DNA of 64,000 bases from a virus (lineage: Duplodnaviria; Caudoviricetes), in IMG/VR virus record IMGVR_UViG_3300049182_000044, positions 32,001 through 96,000 of that record; one strand, written 5' to 3'. The notes under the pieces were generated by a model. It did no database searches and had not been told where the DNA came from. It worked only from the letters and a program-made list of their open reading frames with translations. Of the stretch, positions 24,218 through 58,573 are shown piece after piece. Both the position numbers and the translations under genes were made by a program. How positions within the stretch are numbered: the first letter of the stretch is position 1; every line of letters starts with the position of its first letter.

Positions 24218-24336
24218 TCCTCTATCCCACCACCCAAAGGCGGCCTCGTGTCGCCTTTCCTCACCTTTAGGCTCTCTTCGCCCCAAACGCAAAACTGTAA
24301 ATACGATATGCGTGATTTAATGCGTTGAGAGAACCT

Positions 24337-45865: not shown

Positions 45866-46144
45866 ATGCTTTCGGTGCACCTGAAACGATTTTATCGGTT
45901 CATCCTTAAAGAGACCGAGGACACAACTTCTCATGTCAATTCGGCTTGCACGGCCATCTGTGAGCCGAAGTGGCTGGCGGTCGATAAGAATGGCAAGTGC
46001 TATGCCTTCTCAGTCAAGCCTATTCTCGAAGGTAATTTCTGGATGAACCAGGACAAGAACAAAGTTTTCGTGATGACGATGCCTCAGGGTACCGATTACG
46101 ATTACTCCCAATCACTTCACGAAATAGGAAGAAGAATAGCGTGA
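45866..46144 (+). CDS. Hypothetical protein
   Basis: 92 aa; WLAVDKNG..YAFS.KP phage-type motif. Confidence 0.6.
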   Translation: MLSVHLKRFYRFILKETEDTTSHVNSACTAICEPKWLAVDKNGKCYAFSVKPILEGNFWMNQDKNKVFVMTMPQGTDYDYSQSLHEIGRRIA

Positions 46145-46596
46145 CGCTCCTCGAACAAATCAAAGCAGATCAACTGCAGGCGCGCAAAGACCGGCTGACG
46201 TTGAAAGCAACCCTGCTCACCACGTTGATCGGTGAAGCGGTAATGAAAGGCAAAAACGACGGCAACCGTGAATCGACGGATGACGAAGTGGTCGAGGTCG
46301 TCAAGAAGTTCATCAAGAACATCAACGATACGATCAAGTTTCTGACTGAAGGCGGCGCCACAGAAACTGACGAACGGCTCATTACTGTAAAGAACGAGCG
46401 TCAGATACTCGAAGCGTACCTGCCACAGCAGTTGACAGAAGACCAAATCGTCGGCTTCCTGAAAGCTTCGGGTCTGCAAACGGCTGGTATCAACAAAGGC
46501 ATTTGCATGAAGTACCTGAAAGAGAACTTCGCCGGTCGTTATGACGGCAAGGTCGCCTCTGCAGCCGTTGACCGTTTCATCAGTACCGGTCAGTAA
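46141..46596 (+). CDS. GatB/YqeY-domain protein
   Basis: LLEQIKAD...ARK...TDDEV..VVKK...E..ILEAYLPQQLTEDQI...MKYLK....GRYDGK. Confidence 0.85.
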   Translation: MTLLEQIKADQLQARKDRLTLKATLLTTLIGEAVMKGKNDGNRESTDDEVVEVVKKFIKNINDTIKFLTEGGATETDERLITVKNERQILEAYLPQQLTEDQIVGFLKASGLQTAGINKGICMKYLKENFAGRYDGKVASAAVDRFISTGQ

Positions 46597-47105: not shown

Positions 47106-47708
47106 ATGCTTAAATGGCTAGATAAGATCCTTGGACGGAATAACGAGGAAGGTTCACTGAAAAGTATCACGTTCGATCCAGTTGAATTGATTCAGTTCCG
47201 CGTTGATCGTCGTGTGTTGACAGGCGATCCTGAAGTGACAGTCTACGTCCCGCAATATCGTACTAGGGTCTTTTACGAGTCTAACACACGCCTCAAGGTA
47301 GCCGAAGGTGGATACTTCAGGCGTGCGGTGTTGACCTCTCAACCACCTGAAAACAAGTGGACACCTTGGCAGGACTTCCAAGCGACAGATGATTGCGGTT
47401 GCCCGCTGCATTTCTCGCTCACTGCATACAGTGCAACGCGCACGGTGAAGACCGAAAACTGTAAAAACGTGGTACAGGCGTTGCGGCCAATTCGCATCAT
47501 CGAAACAGAAGGTTCGATGGGTATGGATAAGAACACCTGGGTCGGGAACATCTTGCGCAACGAAACACGTAAGGTGTACTGCGGCAGCGGTGACGGCGTG
47601 GAAGAAGAGTTCTATGTCGTGCGTACCCTTGGTGGCATGAAAGAGATGTGGGTGGCTGTCTCCGCTACTACTCGCGCCGAAGACGGTGTGATCGAGTATC
47701 GGTATTAG
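47106..47708 (+). CDS. Hypothetical protein
   Basis: Start MLKWLDK preferred over 46956; 200 aa. Confidence 0.65.
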   Translation: MLKWLDKILGRNNEEGSLKSITFDPVELIQFRVDRRVLTGDPEVTVYVPQYRTRVFYESNTRLKVAEGGYFRRAVLTSQPPENKWTPWQDFQATDDCGCPLHFSLTAYSATRTVKTENCKNVVQALRPIRIIETEGSMGMDKNTWVGNILRNETRKVYCGSGDGVEEEFYVVRTLGGMKEMWVAVSATTRAEDGVIEYRY

Positions 47709-47747
47709 TTCTGTAAATCGTAATTAGGTAGTTCATTTTAGTACCGT

Positions 47748-47823
47748 GGGGCGTTAACTCAGTTGGTAGAGTAGCGGACTCTTAATCCGTTTGTCGTAAG
47801 TTCGATCCTTACACGCCCTACCA
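47748..47823 (+). tRNA. tRNA-Lys(CTT)
   Basis: 76-nt cloverleaf, gcgga-ct-CTT-aa-tccgt, TTCGATC loop, encoded CCA. Confidence 0.95.
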
Positions 47824-47881
47824 AAGTTTCCATAGTAGTGCAGATGCGCGAAAGCGAGTTCTTACTTCTGCATTACTCACC

Positions 47882-47957
47882 GGGTCGTTAGCTCAGTCGG
47901 TAGAGCAGCGGACTTTTAATCCGTTGGTCGCGTGTTCGAGTCACGCACGGCCTACCA
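47882..47957 (+). tRNA. tRNA-Lys(TTT)
   Basis: 76-nt cloverleaf, gcgga-ct-TTT-aa-tccgt, encoded CCA. Confidence 0.95.
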
Positions 47958-47979
47958 AGTTTGTCGTAGTAAAGAGTTG

Positions 47980-48101
47980 TAACTGCCATGTGGGTGGGTA
48001 CCTGCATGTTGTCGTAAGAATGGCCAAAAAGCCGGACCTCAATTTGTGCGAGTCGAAAGGCTCTCACCAGTGTAGACAGTCCTTACAGGGGATCGCAGTT
48101 A
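47980..48101 (+). ncRNA. Structured inter-tRNA element
   Basis: taactgc/gcagtta closing stem; gagtc-GAAA-ggctc hairpin at 48050-48063. Confidence 0.35.
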
Positions 48102-48111
48102 GCTGTTACGT

Positions 48112-48187
48112 GGGGCGTTAGCTCAGTTGGGAGAGCAGCGAACTTTTAATCCGTTGGTCGCTGGTTCAAACCCAGCACGCCCTACCA
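48112..48187 (+). tRNA. tRNA-Lys(TTT), variant with A30.C40 anticodon-stem mismatch
   Basis: 76-nt cloverleaf, gcgaa-ct-TTT-aa-tccgt, TTCAAAC loop, encoded CCA. Confidence 0.9.
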
Positions 48188-48205
48188 AATTTTAGAAAGT
48201 GCGTT

Positions 48206-48409
48206 ATGTCCAATGAGTACAAGATTGCAACCTACAGCTTCGCTGTAGCAGAAGCAGTACGCGTGGTCTTCAATCACGAAAAGATTCCGTTTGAAAGCGC
48301 AGTCGGTGCGGGTTCGGTGATCGTCATCCTTGTACCCATGGAGCATAAGGCTACCGCACAGAACGTGCTACGTCAATGGAAGTCCGCCATAGCGCAGATT
48401 CAGATTTAA
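48206..48409 (+). CDS. Small hypothetical protein
   Basis: 67 aa within RNA island. Confidence 0.6.
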   Translation: MSNEYKIATYSFAVAEAVRVVFNHEKIPFESAVGAGSVIVILVPMEHKATAQNVLRQWKSAIAQIQI

Positions 48410-48410
48410 C

Positions 48411-48539
48411 GCGGGTATCGTCGAAGGTATGGCTATCGTAGTAAAGGCGTACAGTCATGTGCGTCTACATGGGGCAACTTAACAGTTGCAGCTACGACGT
48501 TCCCATGTTTCGTGAGTTCAAGTCTCACTACCCGCACCA
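48411..48539 (+). ncRNA. tRNA-like RNA, Leu-type acceptor, 129 nt, non-canonical anticodon/variable region
   Basis: gcgggta/tacccgc-A-CCA; gtgag-ttcaagt-ctcac T arm; gtc/ggc D arm; extra stems acatggg/cccatgt and gcaact/agttgc. Confidence 0.8.
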
Positions 48540-48561
48540 CTCCCTTATAAGAGAAAAAGAA

Positions 48562-48651
48562 ATGGGAATCAAAGGCTACGTGATTGCCTGTGCAATCGCT
48601 TCATTGCTCGTCGCCGTGATCGCCACATCTAATTTGTTGACGATGCAGTAA
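48562..48651 (+). CDS. 29-aa membrane peptide
   Basis: MGIKGYVIACAIASLLVAVIATSNLLTMQ, single hydrophobic helix. Confidence 0.4.
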   Translation: MGIKGYVIACAIASLLVAVIATSNLLTMQ

Positions 48652-48657
48652 CAACAG

Positions 48658-48894
48658 TGTGTTTAACACCCCGTCTAAGTGGAAAACGTTGCATTAAGCG
48701 TAGAAACGAACTTAGGCATTGAGCAAGCCAAGTGTTCTTGGACAAGACAAGGGATACTCTTTTGGTTCGCAGGTACCTGTGGACATACAAGTCTGAAGAG
48801 AAACGAAGTCCTGGGTAGGCCGCCCAGGCTAAGTCTAACTTGAACCGAGTGATTGCCTGATGTGGCAGCAATCTGTCACGGGGTGCTAAACACA
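48658..48894 (+). ncRNA. Putative structured ncRNA (~237 nt)
   Basis: 17-bp closing stem tgtgtttaacaccccgt / acggggtgctaaacaca (1 mismatch); internal ctaagt/acttag and cctggg/cccagg. Confidence 0.65.
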
Positions 48895-48905
48895 TTTCAA
48901 AGAAT

Positions 48906-48994
48906 ACGTTCTGCGAGAGATCAATACACAGTGAGTTCGGAGGTGCGGCGGGAACCATGCCTCGGAGCGGACAACAGTCTGTGCAGCAGAACGT
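48906..48994 (+). ncRNA. Unknown RNA motif, copy 1
   Basis: acgttctgc/gcagaacgt closing stem around GAGAG..TACACAGTGAGTTCGG..CGGACAACAGTCTGTGCAGC. Confidence 0.7.
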
Positions 48995-49013
48995 TATATG
49001 CGTATGTATTGAC

Positions 49014-49106
49014 GTAGGCAGTTAGACGCTGGCGCGCGATGATGGTAACTGGCAACGGTTACTTGGGCCATGCGAGACAAAACGATCACAGACCGTTACT
49101 GCTTAC
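49014..49106 (+). ncRNA. Putative structured RNA domain
   Basis: gtaggcagt/actgcttac 9-bp closing stem; gtaac/gttac inner hairpin. Confidence 0.45.
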
Positions 49107-49118
49107 TTCAATATGTAT

Positions 49119-49324
49119 TCAGTGTGTTTATGACGCACCACATTTGCGCGCACTTGCTAGAGACAGGTGTGTTCGCCCAGGTCGAAAGGCCCTCCTGCTT
49201 AACTAGCGGGCGGTTGTATAGGCTGCGAGGGCGTTTAGCAAGCAGTACGGCGTTCTGTTAGCCTGTAAGGGTGTGGGCCGGGTAGTGAAATAGCTACGAA
49301 CGTGGGGCGCCATAAATACATTGA
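49119..49324 (+). ncRNA. Putative structured ncRNA (~206 nt)
   Basis: 18-bp closing stem tcagtgtgtttatgacgc / gcgccataaatacattga (2 G.U, 1 mismatch). Confidence 0.6.
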
Positions 49325-49333
49325 GTTTATTCT

Positions 49334-49506
49334 GGCGGGGTATGCATATTGGAGTAGCTGCGATTGACCGAACCGTGGAGTCCTAGGGTCGGTGAGGTCG
49401 TCGTGGTCGAGTTGGGAACAAGCACTTTGGGAGGTCGGGTAACGTGCTCGATTGAACATTGTGACTCCGACTCGGCGTGAAAGTTCGATCCTTTCCCCTG
49501 CTGCCA
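49334..49506 (+). ncRNA. tRNA-like RNA, 173 nt, G73 discriminator, large insertion in place of the anticodon/variable arms
   Basis: ggcgggg/ccctgct-G-CCA; gaaag-ttcgatc-ctttc T arm; tgca/tgcg D stem with GG in loop. Confidence 0.8.
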
Positions 49507-49587
49507 ACGATTTCGGGACTCGTAGTTTATTCTTCGTCGAGCCGCGTTCAGCATGGGTGACCAGGTCACGTAAGTGCTGATGTTAGT

Positions 49588-49675
49588 CGGGGCGAGGGAG
49601 TAAGAACGTGTTGACTGTGATGCGCTATGCTAAATGGTCAATAAGGTGCAGGTTGAAACCCTGTCGGCCCGACCA
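49588..49675 (+). ncRNA. tRNA-like RNA, Pro-type acceptor (C1-G72, A73), 88 nt, 21-nt anticodon loop
   Basis: cggggcg/cggcccg-A-CCA; gcagg-ttgaaac-cctgt T arm; ttgac/gtcaa stem; no D stem. Confidence 0.7.
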
Positions 49676-49690
49676 ATTTCAAGGAATACC

Positions 49691-50083
49691 ATGAGTAACG
49701 CCACACCCCGATATGCAACGGTAGACGCGAACAAGATGATTATCACAGATGGTAATCATGGCGGTTATCGCACTGGCTTCTGCGCGGTCTGCGAAGCGAG
49801 CGGTTGGTTGGATGTACCGAAAGGTGCGTCGAACGGGATAGTTCATAAACCAGACTGCGTAGTTGGCATTGCACTGAGCGCACTTCAAGAGATGAAAGTG
49901 CTCGACCTGGTGAAGATGTCAAATTTGACCTACTCACTGCCATCCAACAATTTCGCCAATCAGCCGTTTATAATGGCTGATGCATTGAAACGCAGCGATC
50001 TGGAAATGGTCATGAGCTGCCGTGACTTTGACCGCATTGAAGCAGACCAAGAACATACTGTGCTTATCTGGTACAAGCAGTAA
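49691..50083 (+). CDS. Hypothetical protein
   Basis: Start MSNATP after AAGGA; CAVC...H..DC motif; 130 aa. Confidence 0.65.
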   Translation: MSNATPRYATVDANKMIITDGNHGGYRTGFCAVCEASGWLDVPKGASNGIVHKPDCVVGIALSALQEMKVLDLVKMSNLTYSLPSNNFANQPFIMADALKRSDLEMVMSCRDFDRIEADQEHTVLIWYKQ

Positions 50084-50184
50084 GCACGAATCGAACAAGC
50101 GCATCGCGTATCTGGATGCCTCAAAAGTCACGGCTGAATGTGTAAGCTTAGTTAATCCGTGCCAGCCGGTGCGCTTGTTTCGAT

Positions 50185-50337
50185 TAAATTAGTCTGTGCT
50201 CCAGCGAAGATTAACTGGAACGAGAACGTTGGAACAACTCAGCTTTCCTAGGATCGGTGAGCCGACGTCCAGACCGGTAGTCCTTAATCCCCATACTCTC
50301 GTAGGGCGAGCCGGATGTTGGAGTACAGACCAATTTA
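50185..50337 (+). ncRNA. Putative structured ncRNA (~153 nt)
   Basis: 21-bp closing stem taaattagtctgtgctccagc / gttggagtacagaccaattta; inner gattaa/ttaatc and tcgg/ccga. Confidence 0.65.
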
Positions 50338-50349
50338 GAGGAGCTTCAA

Positions 50350-50508
50350 ATGAAACTGAAAGAAATGTTTTCAGTCGCCTGGTGGAAGAAGTACGTGGGC
50401 TTCCAATTCACGCGCTATGATTACAGCGGCAGCGATGGTCGCCGTGTCACAGACTGGATGTTGCATCTGGGCTTTTTCGCAATCACGAAGCATCGTATTG
50501 CGCGGTAA
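50350..50508 (+). CDS. 52-aa hypothetical protein
   Basis: Hand translation MKLKEMFSVAWWKKYVGFQFTRYDY...; GAGGAG RBS. Confidence 0.55.
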   Translation: MKLKEMFSVAWWKKYVGFQFTRYDYSGSDGRRVTDWMLHLGFFAITKHRIAR

Positions 50509-50513
50509 GGATT

Positions 50514-50615
50514 CCACAACGGCCCTAGTCGGGGCGGATCGTAGTTCAGGGGAAGAACAACCGCCGTAAGGTGGGAAGTCGCCGAATCATCTAAGGTCGA
50601 TCCTTTGCGTTGTGG
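50514..50615 (+). ncRNA. Putative structured RNA (~100 nt)
   Basis: ccacaacg/cgttgtgg closing stem; ggatcg/cgatcc inner stem. Confidence 0.5.
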
Positions 50616-50689
50616 TGCAGTCTTCAGTGCTAAGTCGCCAAGTCGTTGAAGAAGCTTAATAACCTTTTTCGACAACTTAGGAGGCGAGC

Positions 50690-51181
50690 ATGGGAGCAGC
50701 AGTAATTCAGCTGAAGTGCGCACGTTGCAAAGCGAAGTTTGAAAAGAAACTAGCTGAGTACACGTATCAATTGCGCAAGGCAGGCGTTTTAGACAAGCCA
50801 TTCTTTTGCAGCAGGGCATGCGGTCAAGCGTATTCAGGCGAGACGTTTCAAGCGTTCACCGATATTCGCGCAATCGCTAAAAGCCTCCGCAATCGAGAGT
50901 GGCCTTGATATGAGAAGTTAGACCGTTATCTAAAATCAACGGGGCTTACGTACCGATTCGAGTTCTTCTTCAAGAAGCACCGATTCGTGTACGACTTGGC
51001 GATAAAGGAACTGCGGTTGATATTCGAGTTCGATGAAGCGTATCACTACGATGAAACCGTCAGGCTTGTAGACAGAGCGAAGGACAAGCTCGCGAAGTCG
51101 AAAGGCTACACTGTGATTCGTGTGCCTTGTTCCAACGGTGCGGTTCTGTCACCGAAACTGATAAAGAAGCATTTGAAGTAG
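50690..51181 (+). pseudogene. Zn-finger + DUF559/Vsr-like endonuclease interrupted by one in-frame TGA (50906-50908)
   Basis: CARC..CSRAC..NREWP*YEKLDRYL...YRFEF...VYDLAI...IFEFDEAYH...KDKLAKSKGYTVIRV in one frame. Confidence 0.7.
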
Positions 51182-51189
51182 TACAGAAT

Positions 51190-51545
51190 TTATGGTTGTG
51201 TGCGTAGCGTAATCTACGCGAGACGTTTGCGTGAAGGCATGGCGGACGGGAGTTCGATTCTCCCCACCTCCACCACCAGCACTTTGAACACCCGGTGATG
51301 GCCGGGAGTTTGACCATGTAGGGTAACGGCCCCATAGCAGCCGCTACAGGACCAGTTGCGATACAACTGCAAAGCGCTGTTGATGGGGGTGACCTGGTTT
51401 CGACGGCGTGAGATAGCAAGAACTACAACTCAGCAGGCGATCGCTGACTCTTCGGAGTGAATCGAAGCAAAAATAGTAAATGCAAACGACTCGCATTTCC
51501 TGCAAGCTGCAAACGCCTAATTAAGCGTTTCACTTCAGGCTAAGT
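51190..51545 (+). ncRNA. ssrA: Circularly permuted (two-piece) tmRNA; outer ends approximate
   Basis: Acceptor piece ending GGGAG-TTCGATT-CTCCC-CACCTCC-A-CCA (51275) lies upstream of GGGGGTGACCTGGTTTCGAC (51385); G3.U70 pair; tag ANDSHFLQAANA* at 51482-51520 with H5 hairpin. Confidence 0.9.
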
Positions 51546-51686
51546 GACTACGGGGTCTGTTGACATAGCGCTACGGCGCGCCGTCTTCGTGTACGTAGTT
51601 AGTCCGGCCACTCCACCTTTCGCCGATAATGACGCGACTGCGCGTGGGTGTCTTAGTCAGCGCGTAAGCGCACCGAAGCCGGACTA
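51546..51686 (+). ncRNA. Structured RNA domains downstream of the tmRNA tag
   Basis: gactacg/cgtagtt and tagtccggc/gccggacta stems. Confidence 0.5.
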
Positions 51687-51698
51687 CCCAGTTTCAAA

Positions 51699-51819
51699 CC
51701 TCCAAGGTCAGAGAGCACTACACAGTGAGTTCGGTCTAAACTTTAACCATTTAGTCACCGAGAGACGATTTCCGTTATAGCAATCTGGATCGGACAACAG
51801 CCTGTGCAGCCAAAGGAGG
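51699..51819 (+). ncRNA. Unknown RNA motif, copy 2
   Basis: cctcc/ggagg closing stem around GAGAG..TACACAGTGAGTTCGG..CGGACAACAGCCTGTGCAGC. Confidence 0.7.
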
Positions 51820-51821
51820 GC

Positions 51822-51989
51822 CCAACGTAAAACGTTCTTCATCGAGCGTTTTACGTTGGTGACGGCAAAGCCGTTAAGGTGCGGACATAGAGCTATTGCA
51901 GCTTCAGCGTGGGTACGAACACTAATCGCATGGAGGAACCCCACCGGCGATGAAGTCGTAGGATGTGAAAGCCCGCTACGCTGTCACCA
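51822..51989 (+). ncRNA. Structured RNA: 13-bp hairpin plus a domain closed by a 10-bp stem
   Basis: ccaacgtaaaacg/cgttttacgttgg; tggtgacggc/gctgtcacca. Confidence 0.5.
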
Positions 51990-52055
51990 ACATTCTCAAA
52001 TCGCGACCTAAGGTGGTCCCGATCATTCAACTTTAATCCATTGAAAGGATTTATC

Positions 52056-52607
52056 ATGAACTCTGCAACACAATTCCCCACCTCGTCTTCTCTTCTCGAA
52101 AAAGCAGCACACTACGCGACAACATTGTTCGATGCGGATAATCTTAAGTTCGATGCGCCGATCTTCACCGATCAGTACGTATCCTTTCCCATGACACACA
52201 GCCTCAACATCGACGGCGACTTCTTTATCAGGGCGCAAAGCGTTGGTGTAACATTCAAAGGTGAGGACGTACGGCTGTTCTATCTACTGCAGGATATGGT
52301 CAAGCGCCATCACCTGCATTTCAGGGTTCAGCACGAAGGTAAATGGGAATACTTTAACCCGCACTTGGCTGGTGAAGGTCAGTTCTCGATGAAGAACCCT
52401 TGCACGTTCTATCTTGCGGGTATTGCAAGCGGAAATCTCAAGGGCTGGTCGGACATTCCTATCAGCCGTGACCCTGCAACATTCGATGACCGCGCAAAGT
52501 TCCTCGCGGTCTTGCTGTATCGTGAATGGGTGCGTCAGATGATGCCCATCATTAAGATGTATCAGTGGTTCCGTGCAAACGACTTACTTGCACCTATCGT
52601 CAAATAA
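52056..52607 (+). CDS. Hypothetical protein
   Basis: Start MNSATQ after AAAGGA; 183 aa. Confidence 0.7.
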   Translation: MNSATQFPTSSSLLEKAAHYATTLFDADNLKFDAPIFTDQYVSFPMTHSLNIDGDFFIRAQSVGVTFKGEDVRLFYLLQDMVKRHHLHFRVQHEGKWEYFNPHLAGEGQFSMKNPCTFYLAGIASGNLKGWSDIPISRDPATFDDRAKFLAVLLYREWVRQMMPIIKMYQWFRANDLLAPIVK

Positions 52608-53048: not shown

Positions 53049-53539
53049 AACGCCTTCTGATTGCCCTTTTCCTCCTTCCTCTGACCTTCGTTCTCACCGC
53101 ATGTGAAGAAGACAAGCCGACGCCGGTGAAGGCAGAACAAGCAGCCAAAGCACGCGCGGCTGCGAACAGCATCAACTTCACTGAGAACGCTGAAATCGAC
53201 AACATCAAGAAGCGCCTGGAGTTGACCTCCAAGAACGATCTTGTCGGCTTCATCATCCTGTTGAACGAGAGCGGCCAGCCGGTGATGTACACTTCGATCA
53301 AAGGCAAGCCCACTTCGGGTGGCAAACGCCTGACGGAACCGGATCGTTACTGGGGCAACTCGACACATGCGGGGATGCGTGCCGCGCCGAGTGACGAGGG
53401 CACTTACGGCTCCTCTGGTGAGTATGTCTTCTTCTGGACGGTGGATGGCCAGTACATGCAATGGAACGGCAAGTACCTGTACTCGGACAAGCCTTTCCGC
53501 CTGAGCGTACAACCGCTGGTTGTCAACGTCAAGGAGTAA
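53045..53539 (+). CDS. Lipoprotein
   Basis: MKRLLIALFLLPLTFVLTA/C lipobox. Confidence 0.75.
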   Translation: MKRLLIALFLLPLTFVLTACEEDKPTPVKAEQAAKARAAANSINFTENAEIDNIKKRLELTSKNDLVGFIILLNESGQPVMYTSIKGKPTSGGKRLTEPDRYWGNSTHAGMRAAPSDEGTYGSSGEYVFFWTVDGQYMQWNGKYLYSDKPFRLSVQPLVVNVKE

Positions 53540-53543
53540 CGCT

Positions 53544-54908
53544 ATGGGTGTGGCTTCGGTCACACCCAATTGCCTTGATAGGTGCGTCTTCAATGAGGAT
53601 TCACCTATCAGATCAATGTCAGCGGAGTTTTACGTGTCAGCCCTCACCCTTAACGTGCAACAAAAAGAGGCGTATGACGGGATACTGAACTTCTTATCGT
53701 ATAACCAAAACGAGCATAAGTTTTATGTGCTCTCAGGATGGGCAGGCACCGGCAAGACGTACTTGCTCGGGGCGTTGCACGAAGCGTTAGACCGATACGG
53801 CTCAGTGTTCACAGCGCCAACGAACAAAGCAACTAAGGTAACATCTAGAACAATTGGTGCGGGAGCCCAATGCAAAACCATCTACTCGCTCCTGGGCATT
53901 CGCATGGTGGCGAACGAAGACCGCATGGTCTTAGAGTTTCCTAAGAAGCCCGTAGACCTCAGCGGCTATAGTCGAATCTATGTCGATGAAGCCTCAATGG
54001 TCAATGAGTCACTTCTGGCTTACATCCGTGATCGTAGTCGATACTCGGCCACCAAATGGATCTTCATCGGCGACCGTGGTCAGTTACCTCCTGTCGGTGA
54101 GAAAGAATCGAAGGTGTGGACACTAAAATGTCCTAAATCACACCTGGAGAAGGTAGAGCGCTACGACAACGAGATCCTTGAGTTTGCTACACACGTTCGC
54201 AAATGCATTCAGAGGTATCCAGATGGCTCTCTGCGTATGCGTAGCAATCACAGCGCAAGCGAAGGCGTGTGGAAGTACAATCGCGGCGGCTTCATGCGTA
54301 ACATTGAGCGTGCTGCCAAGAGAGGCCTGTTCACCGAAATAGATAACACAAAGGCCATCGCGTGGCGTAACAAGACGGTCAATGAGCTGAATCAATTCAT
54401 CCGCTACAACATCTTTGGTAAGGTCGCAGACAAACAACCGTGGCTGCCCGGTGATCGCGTGATGATGGGAGAGCCTGTTCAGATCGGCAGCGCAATCATT
54501 GCCCACGTTGATGATGAAGGTACCGTAGTCGAGGAAGGTGTCGCCTACCACAGCGAGTACAAAGACTTCAATGCGTATCATGTGACTGTTCAGATCGACG
54601 ATGGCCCGGCTGTCCAGTTGAACATCATTCACGAAGACTCGCAAGCCAAATTCGTCCGACGCCTAGGTGAATTAGCCTTAATGGCTAAGAAAGAAAAGCA
54701 CTACTGGCGGGAGTTTTGGGCGTTGAAGAACGCTTTTCAAAGCATTCGGCATAGCTATGCCTTAACTGCTCACCGGGCGCAGGGCAGTACGTTCACGAAT
54801 ACGTTCTTGGATACTGCTGATATTCTGGCTAATTCCAACTCGTATGAAGCACTTCGATGCTTGTACGTAGGTGCAACACGCGCTCAATCCAATCTTATTC
54901 TTGTCTAA
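53544..54908 (+). CDS. Dda/RecD-like SF1B DNA helicase
   Basis: GWAGTGKT, APTNKA, VDEASMV, IGDRGQLPPV, YALTAHRAQGSTF; ATG after AAGGAG. Confidence 0.9.
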   Translation: MGVASVTPNCLDRCVFNEDSPIRSMSAEFYVSALTLNVQQKEAYDGILNFLSYNQNEHKFYVLSGWAGTGKTYLLGALHEALDRYGSVFTAPTNKATKVTSRTIGAGAQCKTIYSLLGIRMVANEDRMVLEFPKKPVDLSGYSRIYVDEASMVNESLLAYIRDRSRYSATKWIFIGDRGQLPPVGEKESKVWTLKCPKSHLEKVERYDNEILEFATHVRKCIQRYPDGSLRMRSNHSASEGVWKYNRGGFMRNIERAAKRGLFTEIDNTKAIAWRNKTVNELNQFIRYNIFGKVADKQPWLPGDRVMMGEPVQIGSAIIAHVDDEGTVVEEGVAYHSEYKDFNAYHVTVQIDDGPAVQLNIIHEDSQAKFVRRLGELALMAKKEKHYWREFWALKNAFQSIRHSYALTAHRAQGSTFTNTFLDTADILANSNSYEALRCLYVGATRAQSNLILV

Positions 54909-56385: not shown

Positions 56386-56419
56386 ACTGTAAAGCGTAGT
56401 CAACAATAACAAACAATAA

Positions 56420-57894: not shown

Positions 57895-58573
57895 TCGAAT
57901 CGAATCATTGAGTCGTGGTGACACGACATTGTGCATCTGCGTAAAATGCGTTGGTAGTCAATATGGACCGGATGAGGCCAAAAGCCGTTGATCCCGATTC
58001 AGGATGTTTGGCGTAACGACGCAACCGAAAGGCGTATAAAACATTAGCCCTAGCCAGTGCGGTACTTAAGTGGACGGCTGCTAGCGCATAATGGATGAAT
58101 GTTATCAAATTCGGCGAAAGCTAAGCTCTCCGGTAGTAACGTTTCCGGGTCACAGGTACCTCAAACGGTCCATACGCTTCGGGCTTGTCCCTTGCGCACA
58201 CCTACCTAAACAGCCACCGAGCAGTGACTGCTGAGTATGCCAACGCCGAGCCAAGCCTAGAACGATAGTCACAGGTAATCCTTCATAGCGACGACGCCTA
58301 AGGCAGTCAAGCGTAGAAGCGACACCACGGTGAATGTCCGATTAGGAAGGTGTAGAGACTGGTAGGTAACCACCGTAACAGCTGCTTTAACTTATGGGCG
58401 TGTCCCAACTCCGAACGCGACGGAGGTGAAGCAGCAGGTGAAGGCACAGTCCGGGCCATCAACGGTATGCGACACTAATCGAGGCCGGCCTTGTAAATGG
58501 GTCGGTGTACTCGAAATAGCTATTACCGCGTATAGGCGGCGAAAGCCGTGGTGGTGAGAATACGATTCGACTC
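57895..58573 (+). mobile_element. Group I intron-type ribozyme without evident host ORF; ends approximate
   Basis: P AAATTCGGCGAA (58107), Q GCCAACGCCGAGCCAAGC (58239), R GAAGGTGTAGAGACTG (58346), S AAGGCACAGTCC (58441); P3 gttatc/ggtaac, P4 ttcggcg/cgccgag, P7 gactg/cagtc, P8 cacc/ggtg, GAAA loops. Confidence 0.85.

Follow-up and report, generated by a model that had tools for sequence, protein, structure and literature searches.

We analysed a 64,000-nucleotide (nt) stretch of a virus genome (Duplodnaviria; Caudoviricetes), hereafter the window, which comprises bases 32001-96000 of the 281,566-bp IMG/VR record IMGVR_UViG_3300049182_000044; the record comes from a soil metagenome, represents a jumbo phage and is scored as 100% complete by CheckV. 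Between the structural module, which includes a 1924-amino-acid open reading frame (ORF) of the size of a tail tape measure gene, and the replication module lies a 4.33-kb island (about 47700-52030 of the window). Besides three tRNA-Lys genes and a permuted transfer-messenger RNA (tmRNA), the island holds three kinds of module, X, Y and Z, that are very probably real structured RNA genes. Together with a class of tRNA scaffolds that have no anticodon, X, Y and Z are new families; the type of island, and its content of tRNA and tmRNA genes, are already known.

A large part of the island does not encode protein. The plus strand carries every long ORF of the window, and five plausible ORFs fall within the island (48206-48409, 48562-48651, 49691-50083, 50350-50508 and 50690-51181); ~3.0 kb lies outside them, and the tRNA and tmRNA genes account for only 0.66 kb of this. 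Codon periodicity was scored as a codon-position chi-square in 240-nt segments, those within the lowest decile of the genome being termed 'low'. By this measure 57% of segments in the island are low, as against 10% genome-wide. The genome's longest run without codon periodicity is 48581-49720, and 51581-52180 and 47621-48160 are also in its top seven. These data show that the three large gaps between ORFs are non-coding.

Helicase relatives with 58-76% identity to the Dda-type helicase encoded 3' of the island were found on Logan and ENA metagenome contigs from independent samples (L103-L106, L187 and L188), and one further contig, L241, was reached through the 188-amino-acid protein encoded between island and helicase. 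Nothing close was found among GenBank phages or in IMG/VR: in GenBank the top helicase relative, MW202489, is a 40-kb phage unrelated to ours, and the IMG/VR helicase search returned a single distant jumbo relative (L115/G001), in which X is absent and seven tRNAs are dispersed. No island occupies the corresponding position in the more distant Logan relatives (L190, L191, L239 and L240; <= 55% identity). In blastn searches the island matched GenBank phages only through tRNA-Lys, and it has no further copies in its own genome. The relatives' contigs (L103, L105, L106, L241-L243) almost all end at an island tRNA or inside the tmRNA, so that only 3' parts of their islands were available; it also follows that short-read assemblies systematically lose such islands.

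X (49003-49122, plus strand) was found by blastn among the non-coding parts of the relatives' loci. It is a three-way-junction RNA with a closing helix of ~19 bp, formed by P0 and P1 with a one-base mismatch between them, followed by a UUAGA junction, P2, an AGACAAA junction, a variable hairpin P4 and the return strands. The conserved loop reads GCGCGAUGAUGG / CUUGGGC in the phage; in five copies P2 leads into a near-invariant loop, GCGYGAUGAUGG ... CUUGGRC, with a variable hairpin as its cap. Seven distinct copies from six phages, two of them in L187, make X a family. The phage copy scores 104 bits with its covariance model (CM R1) and has a folding z-score of -4.3, and a CM trained on five copies recovered the held-out copies of L106 (E 7e-18) and L188 (E 4e-17). 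No second copy was found with the CM in the phage's own 281-kb genome.

Pairs were counted in CM-guided alignments and in an anchor-based alignment of our own, since in some X and Z copies the 3' half was wrongly aligned by MAFFT. In the anchor-based alignment 129 of the 133 cells of P0/P1 are canonical and 12 of 19 pairs show double changes, which none of 2000 shuffles equalled. The model-guided alignment gave 95.5% of cells paired and compensatory changes at 12 of 21 pairs (0/500 shuffles), as against 32-45% for slid controls. P2 is supported by the pairs CGATAGC/GCTATCG, CGACGTTC/GAACGTGCG, CGATGAC/GTCGTCG and CGC-TGGC/GCCA-GCG; this helix is our reading of the sequences, and RNAalifold favoured a competing 4-bp hairpin. 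Exact-pattern scans for X gave no match in IMG/VR or in GTDB genomes, and the 47 matches in JGI metagenomes were chance ones, none of them X-like. A retron msr-msd identity, considered for the closing helix followed by UUAG, was rejected, reverse transcriptase (PF00078) being absent from the whole genome. The hammerhead and the group I R/S elements do not appear to fit X in junction lengths or sequences, and Rfam gives no such match.

Y (49122-49328, plus strand) is a 205-nt RNA of eight helices and 55 pairs, closed by a helix of ~16 bp, as folded by RNAalifold on four copies. The plus-strand score of the phage copy with CM R2 is 204 bits and its minus-strand score 23 bits; over all copies the corresponding ranges are 201-213 and 20-29 bits. 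In the alignment 97.9% of cells are paired and 22 of the 55 pairs carry compensatory changes (0/500 shuffles; slid controls again 32-45%). The CM recovers the held-out, 5'-truncated copy of L241 at E 1e-8. A shorter form of Y occurs in L106 and L241, and L105 has Y without X.

Z is present twice in the window, as Z1 (48905-48994, plus strand; CM R3, 92 bits, and pair counts) and, with a longer insert, as Z2 (51699-51817, plus strand; CM R3, 101 bits). The two share blocks of 25 and 24 nt, and two further copies lie in L187. The motif consists of AGAGA.CA...CACAKUGAG, a variable insert and ACAA.AG..UGUGCAGC; in the consensus an outer helix leads into a 12-nt bulge that is conserved, (S)AGAGA.CA..A, and then into the helix CACAK/MUGUG, beyond which come an internal loop, another helix and a tip that varies. 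With three copies as its basis, a model picked out the fourth (E 6e-10) and had no other match in 468 kb; 95.9% of cells are paired and 8 of 19 pairs are compensatory (0/500 shuffles). One hundred exact-pattern matches (CACAGTGAGTTCGG) in IMG/VR were rejected as chance, the second half of the motif being absent from all of them. Loop B of the hairpin ribozyme appears to differ from Z in junction lengths and sequence, again with no Rfam match.

A cmscan of 47400-52300 with Rfam 15 at E <= 5 gave, besides tRNA and tmRNA, no more than a YrlA match below threshold and Plastid-ycf2 noise; at this threshold X, Y, Z and two further modules, M4 and M17 (described below), match neither GOLLD nor ROOL nor any other Rfam 15 model, and a gathering-threshold scan of nine relatives' loci found tRNA and tmRNA only. 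A preliminary description of the island as a series of abutting folded RNA modules had supposed that most of them match no known family, and in this it was right. Covariation outside the tRNA and tmRNA genes, on which that description had staked its case beforehand, is clearly present for X, Y and Z.

Helices that bound each unit as inverted repeats might also act as DNA, in miniature transposable elements, homing-endonuclease cassettes or a replication origin beside the replication genes. The units do vary in number and order, the island contains an endonuclease gene and lies just 5' of the Dda helicase, and L187 carries a DUF4096 transposase fragment. However, the helices hold many G-T and almost no A-C oppositions (11 G-U versus 2 A-C in P0/P1 of X), and the CM scores are strongly strand-specific, both of which point to RNA. 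The terminal helices vary in sequence yet stay complementary, unlike transposase-bound ends; the only direct repeats are the tRNAs and iterons are absent, no unit recurs elsewhere in the genome, and the GC skew does not turn at the island. We consider a DNA-level function extremely improbable.

At least three further elements of the island, all on the plus strand, are shaped like tRNAs. tRNA-like A (48411-48539) has a 7-bp acceptor stem, A73-CCA and a T arm, and three hairpins stand where the anticodon and variable arms would be (z -4.1; 0/200 shuffles). Its acceptor and T arm are tRNA-Leu-like: the 3' end is 86% identical to that of the L187 tRNA-Leu, with a compensatory change in the acceptor. 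No orthologue of it was found. tRNA-like B (49334-49507), recognized from sequence and fold, has acceptor, D and T arms and G73-CCA, and an insert of ~95 nt replaces the anticodon arm. A homologue in L105 (~1266-1462) shares both ends with it and has another insert, which is longer, and the two differ by compensatory changes in the acceptor (GGCGGGG/CCCTGCT versus GGCGAAG/CTTCGTC) and the T stem (GAAAG/CTTTC versus GAAGG/CCTTC). A third RNA of this kind, at 1046-1185 of L104, has a perfect D arm and an anticodon stem that extends into a ~20-bp arm without an anticodon loop. tRNA-like C (50515-50616; z -2.8) is degenerate; it has an 8-bp terminal helix, a T-arm-like hairpin with a GTCGATC loop that repeats the T arm of the first tRNA-Lys, and no CCA, and no homologue of it was found.

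None of the three matches RF00005 at E <= 5: acceptor and T arms are present, and a 7-nt anticodon loop is not. ARAGORN called A only with a lowered threshold and the intron option, and did not call B or C. We rejected the idea that A and B are intron-containing tRNAs, as group I introns are longer than the inserts (45-120 nt), no intron model of Rfam gives a match, neither RtcB nor Rnl2 is encoded, and an anticodon loop cannot be reconstructed in either. At the Rfam gathering threshold no intron family appears anywhere in the window, 57895-58573 included. YrlA (RF02553) was likewise rejected, at 31.4 bits against a gathering score of 69 and with a match that spans two real tRNAs, as was a Y RNA, Rsr/TROVE (PF05731) being absent from the genome. 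The elements are non-coding RNAs that hold a tRNA-like module, as do YrlA and bacterial Y RNAs, which are also present in some phages and add to the module a stem bound by Rsr; unlike in YrlA, the topology is reversed, the ends of the present RNAs forming the acceptor stem. A 23-nt complementarity (87%) was noted between 48525-48547, at the 3' end of tRNA-like A, and 49266-49288, in a segment of Y. It takes in the 3' strands of the T arm and acceptor of A and its ACCA; by our estimate ~0.01 chance matches of this kind are expected in the region, and it is not kept in L187.

Could the island be a decaying tRNA cluster, made up of tRNA-shaped pseudogenes with insertions and of neutral spacer that folds by chance? 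Turnover of tRNA genes among the relatives is fast (Lys here; Thr and Leu in L104, L187 and L188), tRNA-like C is degenerate and A resembles tRNA-Leu, the thermodynamic signals are near background, and a broken endonuclease gene lies inside the island. For X, Y and Z this explanation is already contradicted: they persist among phages that share no more than 58-66% helicase identity, and do so with compensatory changes and with scores that depend on the strand. The acceptor and T stems of tRNA-like B are likewise maintained by compensatory changes, and phage genomes do not normally keep 2 kb of neutral DNA. We regard decay as highly improbable.

The relatives' loci show that the island is a clade feature, variable in content. 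Among canonical genes, L103 has a permuted tmRNA, L104 and L187 a tRNA-Thr, and L187 and L188 a tRNA-Leu. In the window M4, Z1, X, Y and tRNA-like B are consecutive, with linkers of 3-10 nt. The equally dense island of L187 runs tRNA-Thr, small module, Z, Z, module, tRNA-Leu, X, Y, ORF, X, and L104, L106, L188 and L241 have X alone or with the short Y. In L187, L188 and L104 X directly follows the 3' end of a tRNA or tRNA-like element. A module not found in the window, V, which has a covarying closing helix of ~20 bp, lies between short Y and X in L106 (395-600) and L241 (135-342). As modules recur in different order and number among the relatives, they behave as cassettes and not as fixed domains of one large RNA.

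Phages and prophages encode the ROOL and GOLLD RNAs, in many cases close to tRNA islands (bioRxiv 10.1101/2024.12.08.627333), and the present modules resemble them as elaborately folded phage non-coding RNAs that neighbour tRNA genes or are placed among them, with no protein partner known. On this model 48655-49328 (M4, Z1, X and Y), and likewise 51612-51991, would be domains of one or two such 'ornate' RNAs acting whole, for example as a multimer. The modules do abut, each large stretch has one copy of Z, and the linker of GOLLD can carry tRNAs. However, no GOLLD or ROOL match was obtained at E <= 5, and the relatives have X alone, Y alone, or Z pairs split from X and Y by a tRNA, with no fixed architecture. 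The only long-range pairing found between modules is the 23-nt complementarity, which is not kept in L187. Unlike GOLLD and ROOL, the present units are smaller (90-245 nt) and form independent modules in varying order. That they are parts of an ornate RNA seems to us improbable.

All three tRNA-Lys genes lie on the plus strand and were called by both ARAGORN and RF00005, at 64-71 bits against a gathering score of 29: tRNA-Lys (CUU) at 47748-47823 (67.2 bits), tRNA-Lys (UUU) at 47882-47957 (70.8 bits) and a second tRNA-Lys (UUU) at 48112-48187 (63.9 bits), which has an A30-C40 mismatch in the anticodon stem. In the whole 281.6-kb genome ARAGORN and Rfam find no tRNA or tmRNA gene besides these and the single tmRNA. 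The tRNA-Lys of phage T5 neutralises the PARIS nuclease AriB, which cleaves host tRNA-Lys, and infection is thereby rescued (PMC11464382). As in T5, a phage carries tRNA-Lys, here in three genes and as the sole tRNA identity of a 281-kb genome, and by this analogy the genes point to replacement of host tRNA-Lys destroyed by defence nucleases, with codon supply as the alternative.

The tmRNA (51183-51611, plus strand; ARAGORN) is of the permuted, two-piece type and has the tag ANDSHFLQAANA. It matches RF04321 at 98.5 bits (gathering score 47) over model positions 1-213, that is at full length, and its homologue in L103 scores 91.9 bits. Permuted tmRNAs make up 53 of the 133 unique phage tmRNA structures recorded (PMC9004378). 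Most recorded phage two-piece tmRNAs are marine or aquatic, whereas the present phage is from soil, and its tag ends in ANA, where the usual tags are of the LAA or VAA type. It is reasonable to suppose that the tmRNA and the tRNA-Lys genes act in translation or defence.

At the head of the island, two bases after the stop codon on its 5' side, lies the element TCTGTAAA (47710-47717, plus strand), a candidate phage promoter. The plus-strand sequence CTGTAAA occurs 22 times in the genome and 13 times in the window, mostly just after stop codons (for example at 24295, 36895, 43307, 46597, 47711, 56387 and 57879), and is our candidate for a phage-specific promoter. One copy stands at the island head, none lies within 47718-52040, and the next is at 56387; in L187, CTGTAAAT is found 5' of the first tRNA. 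Six terminator-like sites on both strands compare with 5.9 expected, none on the plus strand being above chance, and sigma-70-like promoters show no excess over expectation. The CTGTAAA, terminator and linker data fit one transcript, and the case for a single long precursor of the island is, in our judgement, evenly balanced.

If there is such a precursor, transcription would probably start at the CTGTAAA element at 47710, with all genes on the plus strand, and host enzymes would release the modules from one long transcript. tRNA-shaped ends are natural substrates for RNase P and 3'-end processing, and helices of 15-20 bp are typical substrates for RNase III; the former enzymes might thus act at the tRNA-shaped ends and the latter at the long closing helices. 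The phage genome encodes no RNase III, SmpB, CCA-adding enzyme, RtcB, Rnl2, Rsr or reverse transcriptase, so that maturation and use of the RNAs must rely on host factors. The tRNA-Lys genes and the tmRNA would keep translation going when the host cleaves tRNA-Lys or mRNAs, the tmRNA by releasing ribosomes that have stalled on damaged messages. The tRNA-shaped RNAs, like X, Y and Z, could be stable trans-acting RNAs, for instance decoys or binders of host factors that recognise tRNA ends or structured RNA; alternatively, X, Y, Z and the tRNA scaffolds may regulate host RNA-binding proteins or serve as processing or insulating elements. That these new RNAs act in translation or defence is a tentative proposal.

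Taken jointly, the explanation that we prefer (an RNA-gene island, one transcript, host processing and the proposed roles) has slightly more in its favour than against, and several observations weigh against it. The comparative set comprises 4-8 sequences per family, all from metagenomic contigs, and their kinship inflates the shuffle statistics given above. M4, M10, M11 (both described below) and tRNA-like A and C have no homologue in the few relatives available, and tRNA-like C, with no CCA and a flawed T loop, looks as a decaying tRNA gene would. No RNA dataset is listed with the island or with 48650-49510, the only DNA dataset probably being the source sample, and the tRNA-Lys genes are not tied to a particular host nuclease. 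Folding energy barely adds to the case, as it reaches at most 1.5-2.5 times the level of flanking coding sequence. Minimum-free-energy z-scores in sliding 120-nt segments are the same for the island as for the flanking coding genes; the island has seven perfect stems of at least 9 bp (span <= 320 nt), a number reached in 100 of 555 equal-sized genome segments, for which the mean is 4.75. RNALfold coverage is 0.60 of island non-ORF sequence versus 0.36 of the rest of the window at z <= -3, only 0.20 versus 0.13 at z <= -4, and 0.087 versus 0.035 at z <= -5. Two stretches, M2 (47958-48111) and M14 (51612-51698), both at z ~-0.7, are without support and look like plain spacer. X, moreover, sits no more than ~100 nt 5' of the first protein gene after the island in five of seven cases, a position as compatible with a leader or processing signal that acts in cis as with a free RNA.

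This last point bears on the possibility that the modules are cis-acting parts of mRNAs: RNase III sites, stabilising hairpins, or translational operators for the small ORFs, the 188-amino-acid gene and the helicase gene. The inter-genic RNase III sites of T7 are the model for such a function. The copies of X close to the 188-amino-acid gene or the helicase are those of L104, L106, L241, L188 and the second copy of L187; in the relatives two covarying hairpins, one with a Shine-Dalgarno sequence, stand directly 5' of the 188-amino-acid gene, and the 15-20-bp closing helices would suit RNase III. On the other side, X in the window and the first copy in L187 are flanked by RNA modules or tRNAs and not by an ORF, and Y and Z do not adjoin ORFs. 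The conserved cores of X and Y, a three-way junction and eight helices respectively, far exceed what a cleavage site needs, and the ~1.1 kb of 48655-49690 contains no credible ORF to regulate. We think a cis-acting function of this sort rather unlikely, and continue to prefer free RNA genes.

Of the features set out in the preliminary description, all are present where it had placed them, and long closing helices exist for M4, X, Y, M10, M11, M16 and M17. M4 (48655-48897, plus strand) is a 243-nt multi-hairpin module closed by ~19 bp (48656-48674 with 48878-48896); it includes a 17-nt inverted repeat that is 94% complementary, and has z -4.45 (RNALfold z -4.6). M10 (50087-50186, plus strand; z -2.3) is closed by ~15 bp (50087-50101 with 50171-50186), with a perfect 10-bp core at 50094/50179, and M11 (50192-50331, plus strand; z -3.0, 1/200 shuffles) by 14 bp. 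The spacer between the first two tRNAs, said to be folded as well, is indeed an 11-bp stem around a CGC-GAAA-GCG hairpin (M1; 47834-47877, plus strand; z -2.9, 5/200 shuffles); no homologue of it was found. M9b (49588-49675, plus strand) is a weak candidate for a hairpin or tRNA-like module (z -2.4), also with no homologue found. For M4, M10, M11, M9b and tRNA-like C the evidence is folding.

M16 and M17, both on the plus strand, have counterparts in L103. M16 (51822-51859; z -6.0) is a 16-bp hairpin without a U tail, and its homologue shows compensatory changes. M17 (51855-51991; z -3.7) has a 12-bp closing helix and a conserved core, GCAUGGAGGAACCCCACC ... GUAGGAUG; it is 80% identical to the L103 sequence, in which the closing helix (GTTGGCAGC/GCTGCCAAC) is kept with compensatory changes. 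The 188-amino-acid gene is preceded by two leader hairpins (52000-52051, plus strand), GCGACC-UAAG-GUGGUC and AAUCC-AUUGAA-AGGAUU, the second of which holds a Shine-Dalgarno sequence; compensatory changes are seen in both in L103, L104, L105, L106, L187 and L241.

The module-bounded z-scores (-3 to -6) are only descriptive, because boundaries were picked after looking. Comparative data, in turn, raise X, Y, Z1/Z2, tRNA-like B, M16, M17 and the two leader hairpins well above chance. That the folding exceeds chance holds only in part, as sliding z-scores, stems and coverage of the island at large are near background. As a number of candidates 'about a dozen modules' is fair; leaving the tRNAs and tmRNA aside, no more than about eight are backed by evidence beyond folding energy.

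Proteins encoded in and around the island offer some further clues. On the 5' side a YqeY-like protein (46141-46596; Pfam 6e-17) is followed by a 250-amino-acid ORFan, and on the 3' side the 188-amino-acid ORFan is followed by the Dda-type helicase (53520-54908; PHROG 325, 1e-91). Domains of the YqeY/GatB-C-terminal type are tRNA-binding appendages. The YqeY/GatB-C-terminal-like protein is free-standing, lies 1.1 kb 5' of the island and has a homologue in L188 (41% identity); it may be a partner of the island RNAs. The 250- and 188-amino-acid proteins and the small ORFs gave no match in Pfam or PHROGs, and a protein atlas look-up for the 250-amino-acid protein yielded nothing usable. Members of the 188-amino-acid family (52041-52607 in the window; also in L103-L106, L187 and L241) always lie 3' of RNA modules, behind the two covarying hairpins. 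An AlphaFold2 (AF2) model of the protein (predicted local distance difference test, pLDDT, 83) has no significant match in PDB or AFDB, the sole hint being a weak likeness to the DNA-binding domain of T4 MotA (Foldseek E 0.024).

Within the island, the ORFs 49691-50083, 50350-50508 and 50690-51181 have strong Shine-Dalgarno sequences; no island ORF has a homologue in the relatives' loci, and 49691-50083 has none among 5.8 billion proteins. Between tRNA-like A and M4, 48562-48651 encodes 29 strongly hydrophobic amino acids (MGIKGYVIACAIASLLVAVIATSNLLTMQ) and shows some codon periodicity. The ORF at 50690-51181 (plus strand; Pfam PF04480, E 1.9e-6; PHROG 559, HNH endonuclease), directly 5' of the tmRNA, consists of a Zn-ribbon part of 72 amino acids and a DUF559/Vsr-like endonuclease domain of 90, and is interrupted by an in-frame TGA at 50906-50908. 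It is either a decayed free-standing homing endonuclease or a gene expressed by read-through.

The nearest known kind of locus is the phage tRNA island with large structured RNAs (ROOL, GOLLD), and T4-type clusters are also close. In T4 the tRNA cluster is co-transcribed, its precursors are processed with host RNase P, and two stable non-tRNA RNAs are also made. Clusters of that type combine compact tRNA genes with small ORFs and the homing endonuclease gene segB (PMC2330249). In common with them, the present island is a compact cluster in which small ORFs and an endonuclease gene lie among the tRNA genes. It differs in that Lys is the only tRNA identity, a tmRNA is present and non-tRNA RNAs make up most of the island; unlike segB, its endonuclease gene belongs to the DUF559 type and carries an internal stop codon.

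The present case extends what phage tRNA islands are known to contain by at least three RNA families that are unrelated and well supported, and by a class of anticodon-less tRNA scaffolds, in a compact modular layout that differs between close relatives. The RNAs are small and tractable (90-205 nt), suited to structure probing, processing assays and tests against tRNA-targeting defence systems, and their covariance models are usable over large metagenome sets. As the only tRNAs of a 281-kb phage, the three tRNA-Lys make a clear counter-defence candidate against lysine-tRNA nucleases. It is a speculative and rather doubtful extension that a clade of soil jumbo phages carries a polycistronic operon of interchangeable RNA cassettes (X, Y, Z and anticodon-less CCA scaffolds), excised by host tRNA- and double-stranded-RNA-processing enzymes, which might serve in trans to divert or inhibit either the host's RNA-targeting immunity or the translation apparatus, for instance as decoys. 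If true, this would place an RNA-based counter-defence arsenal beside the known tRNA-Lys and tmRNA strategies.

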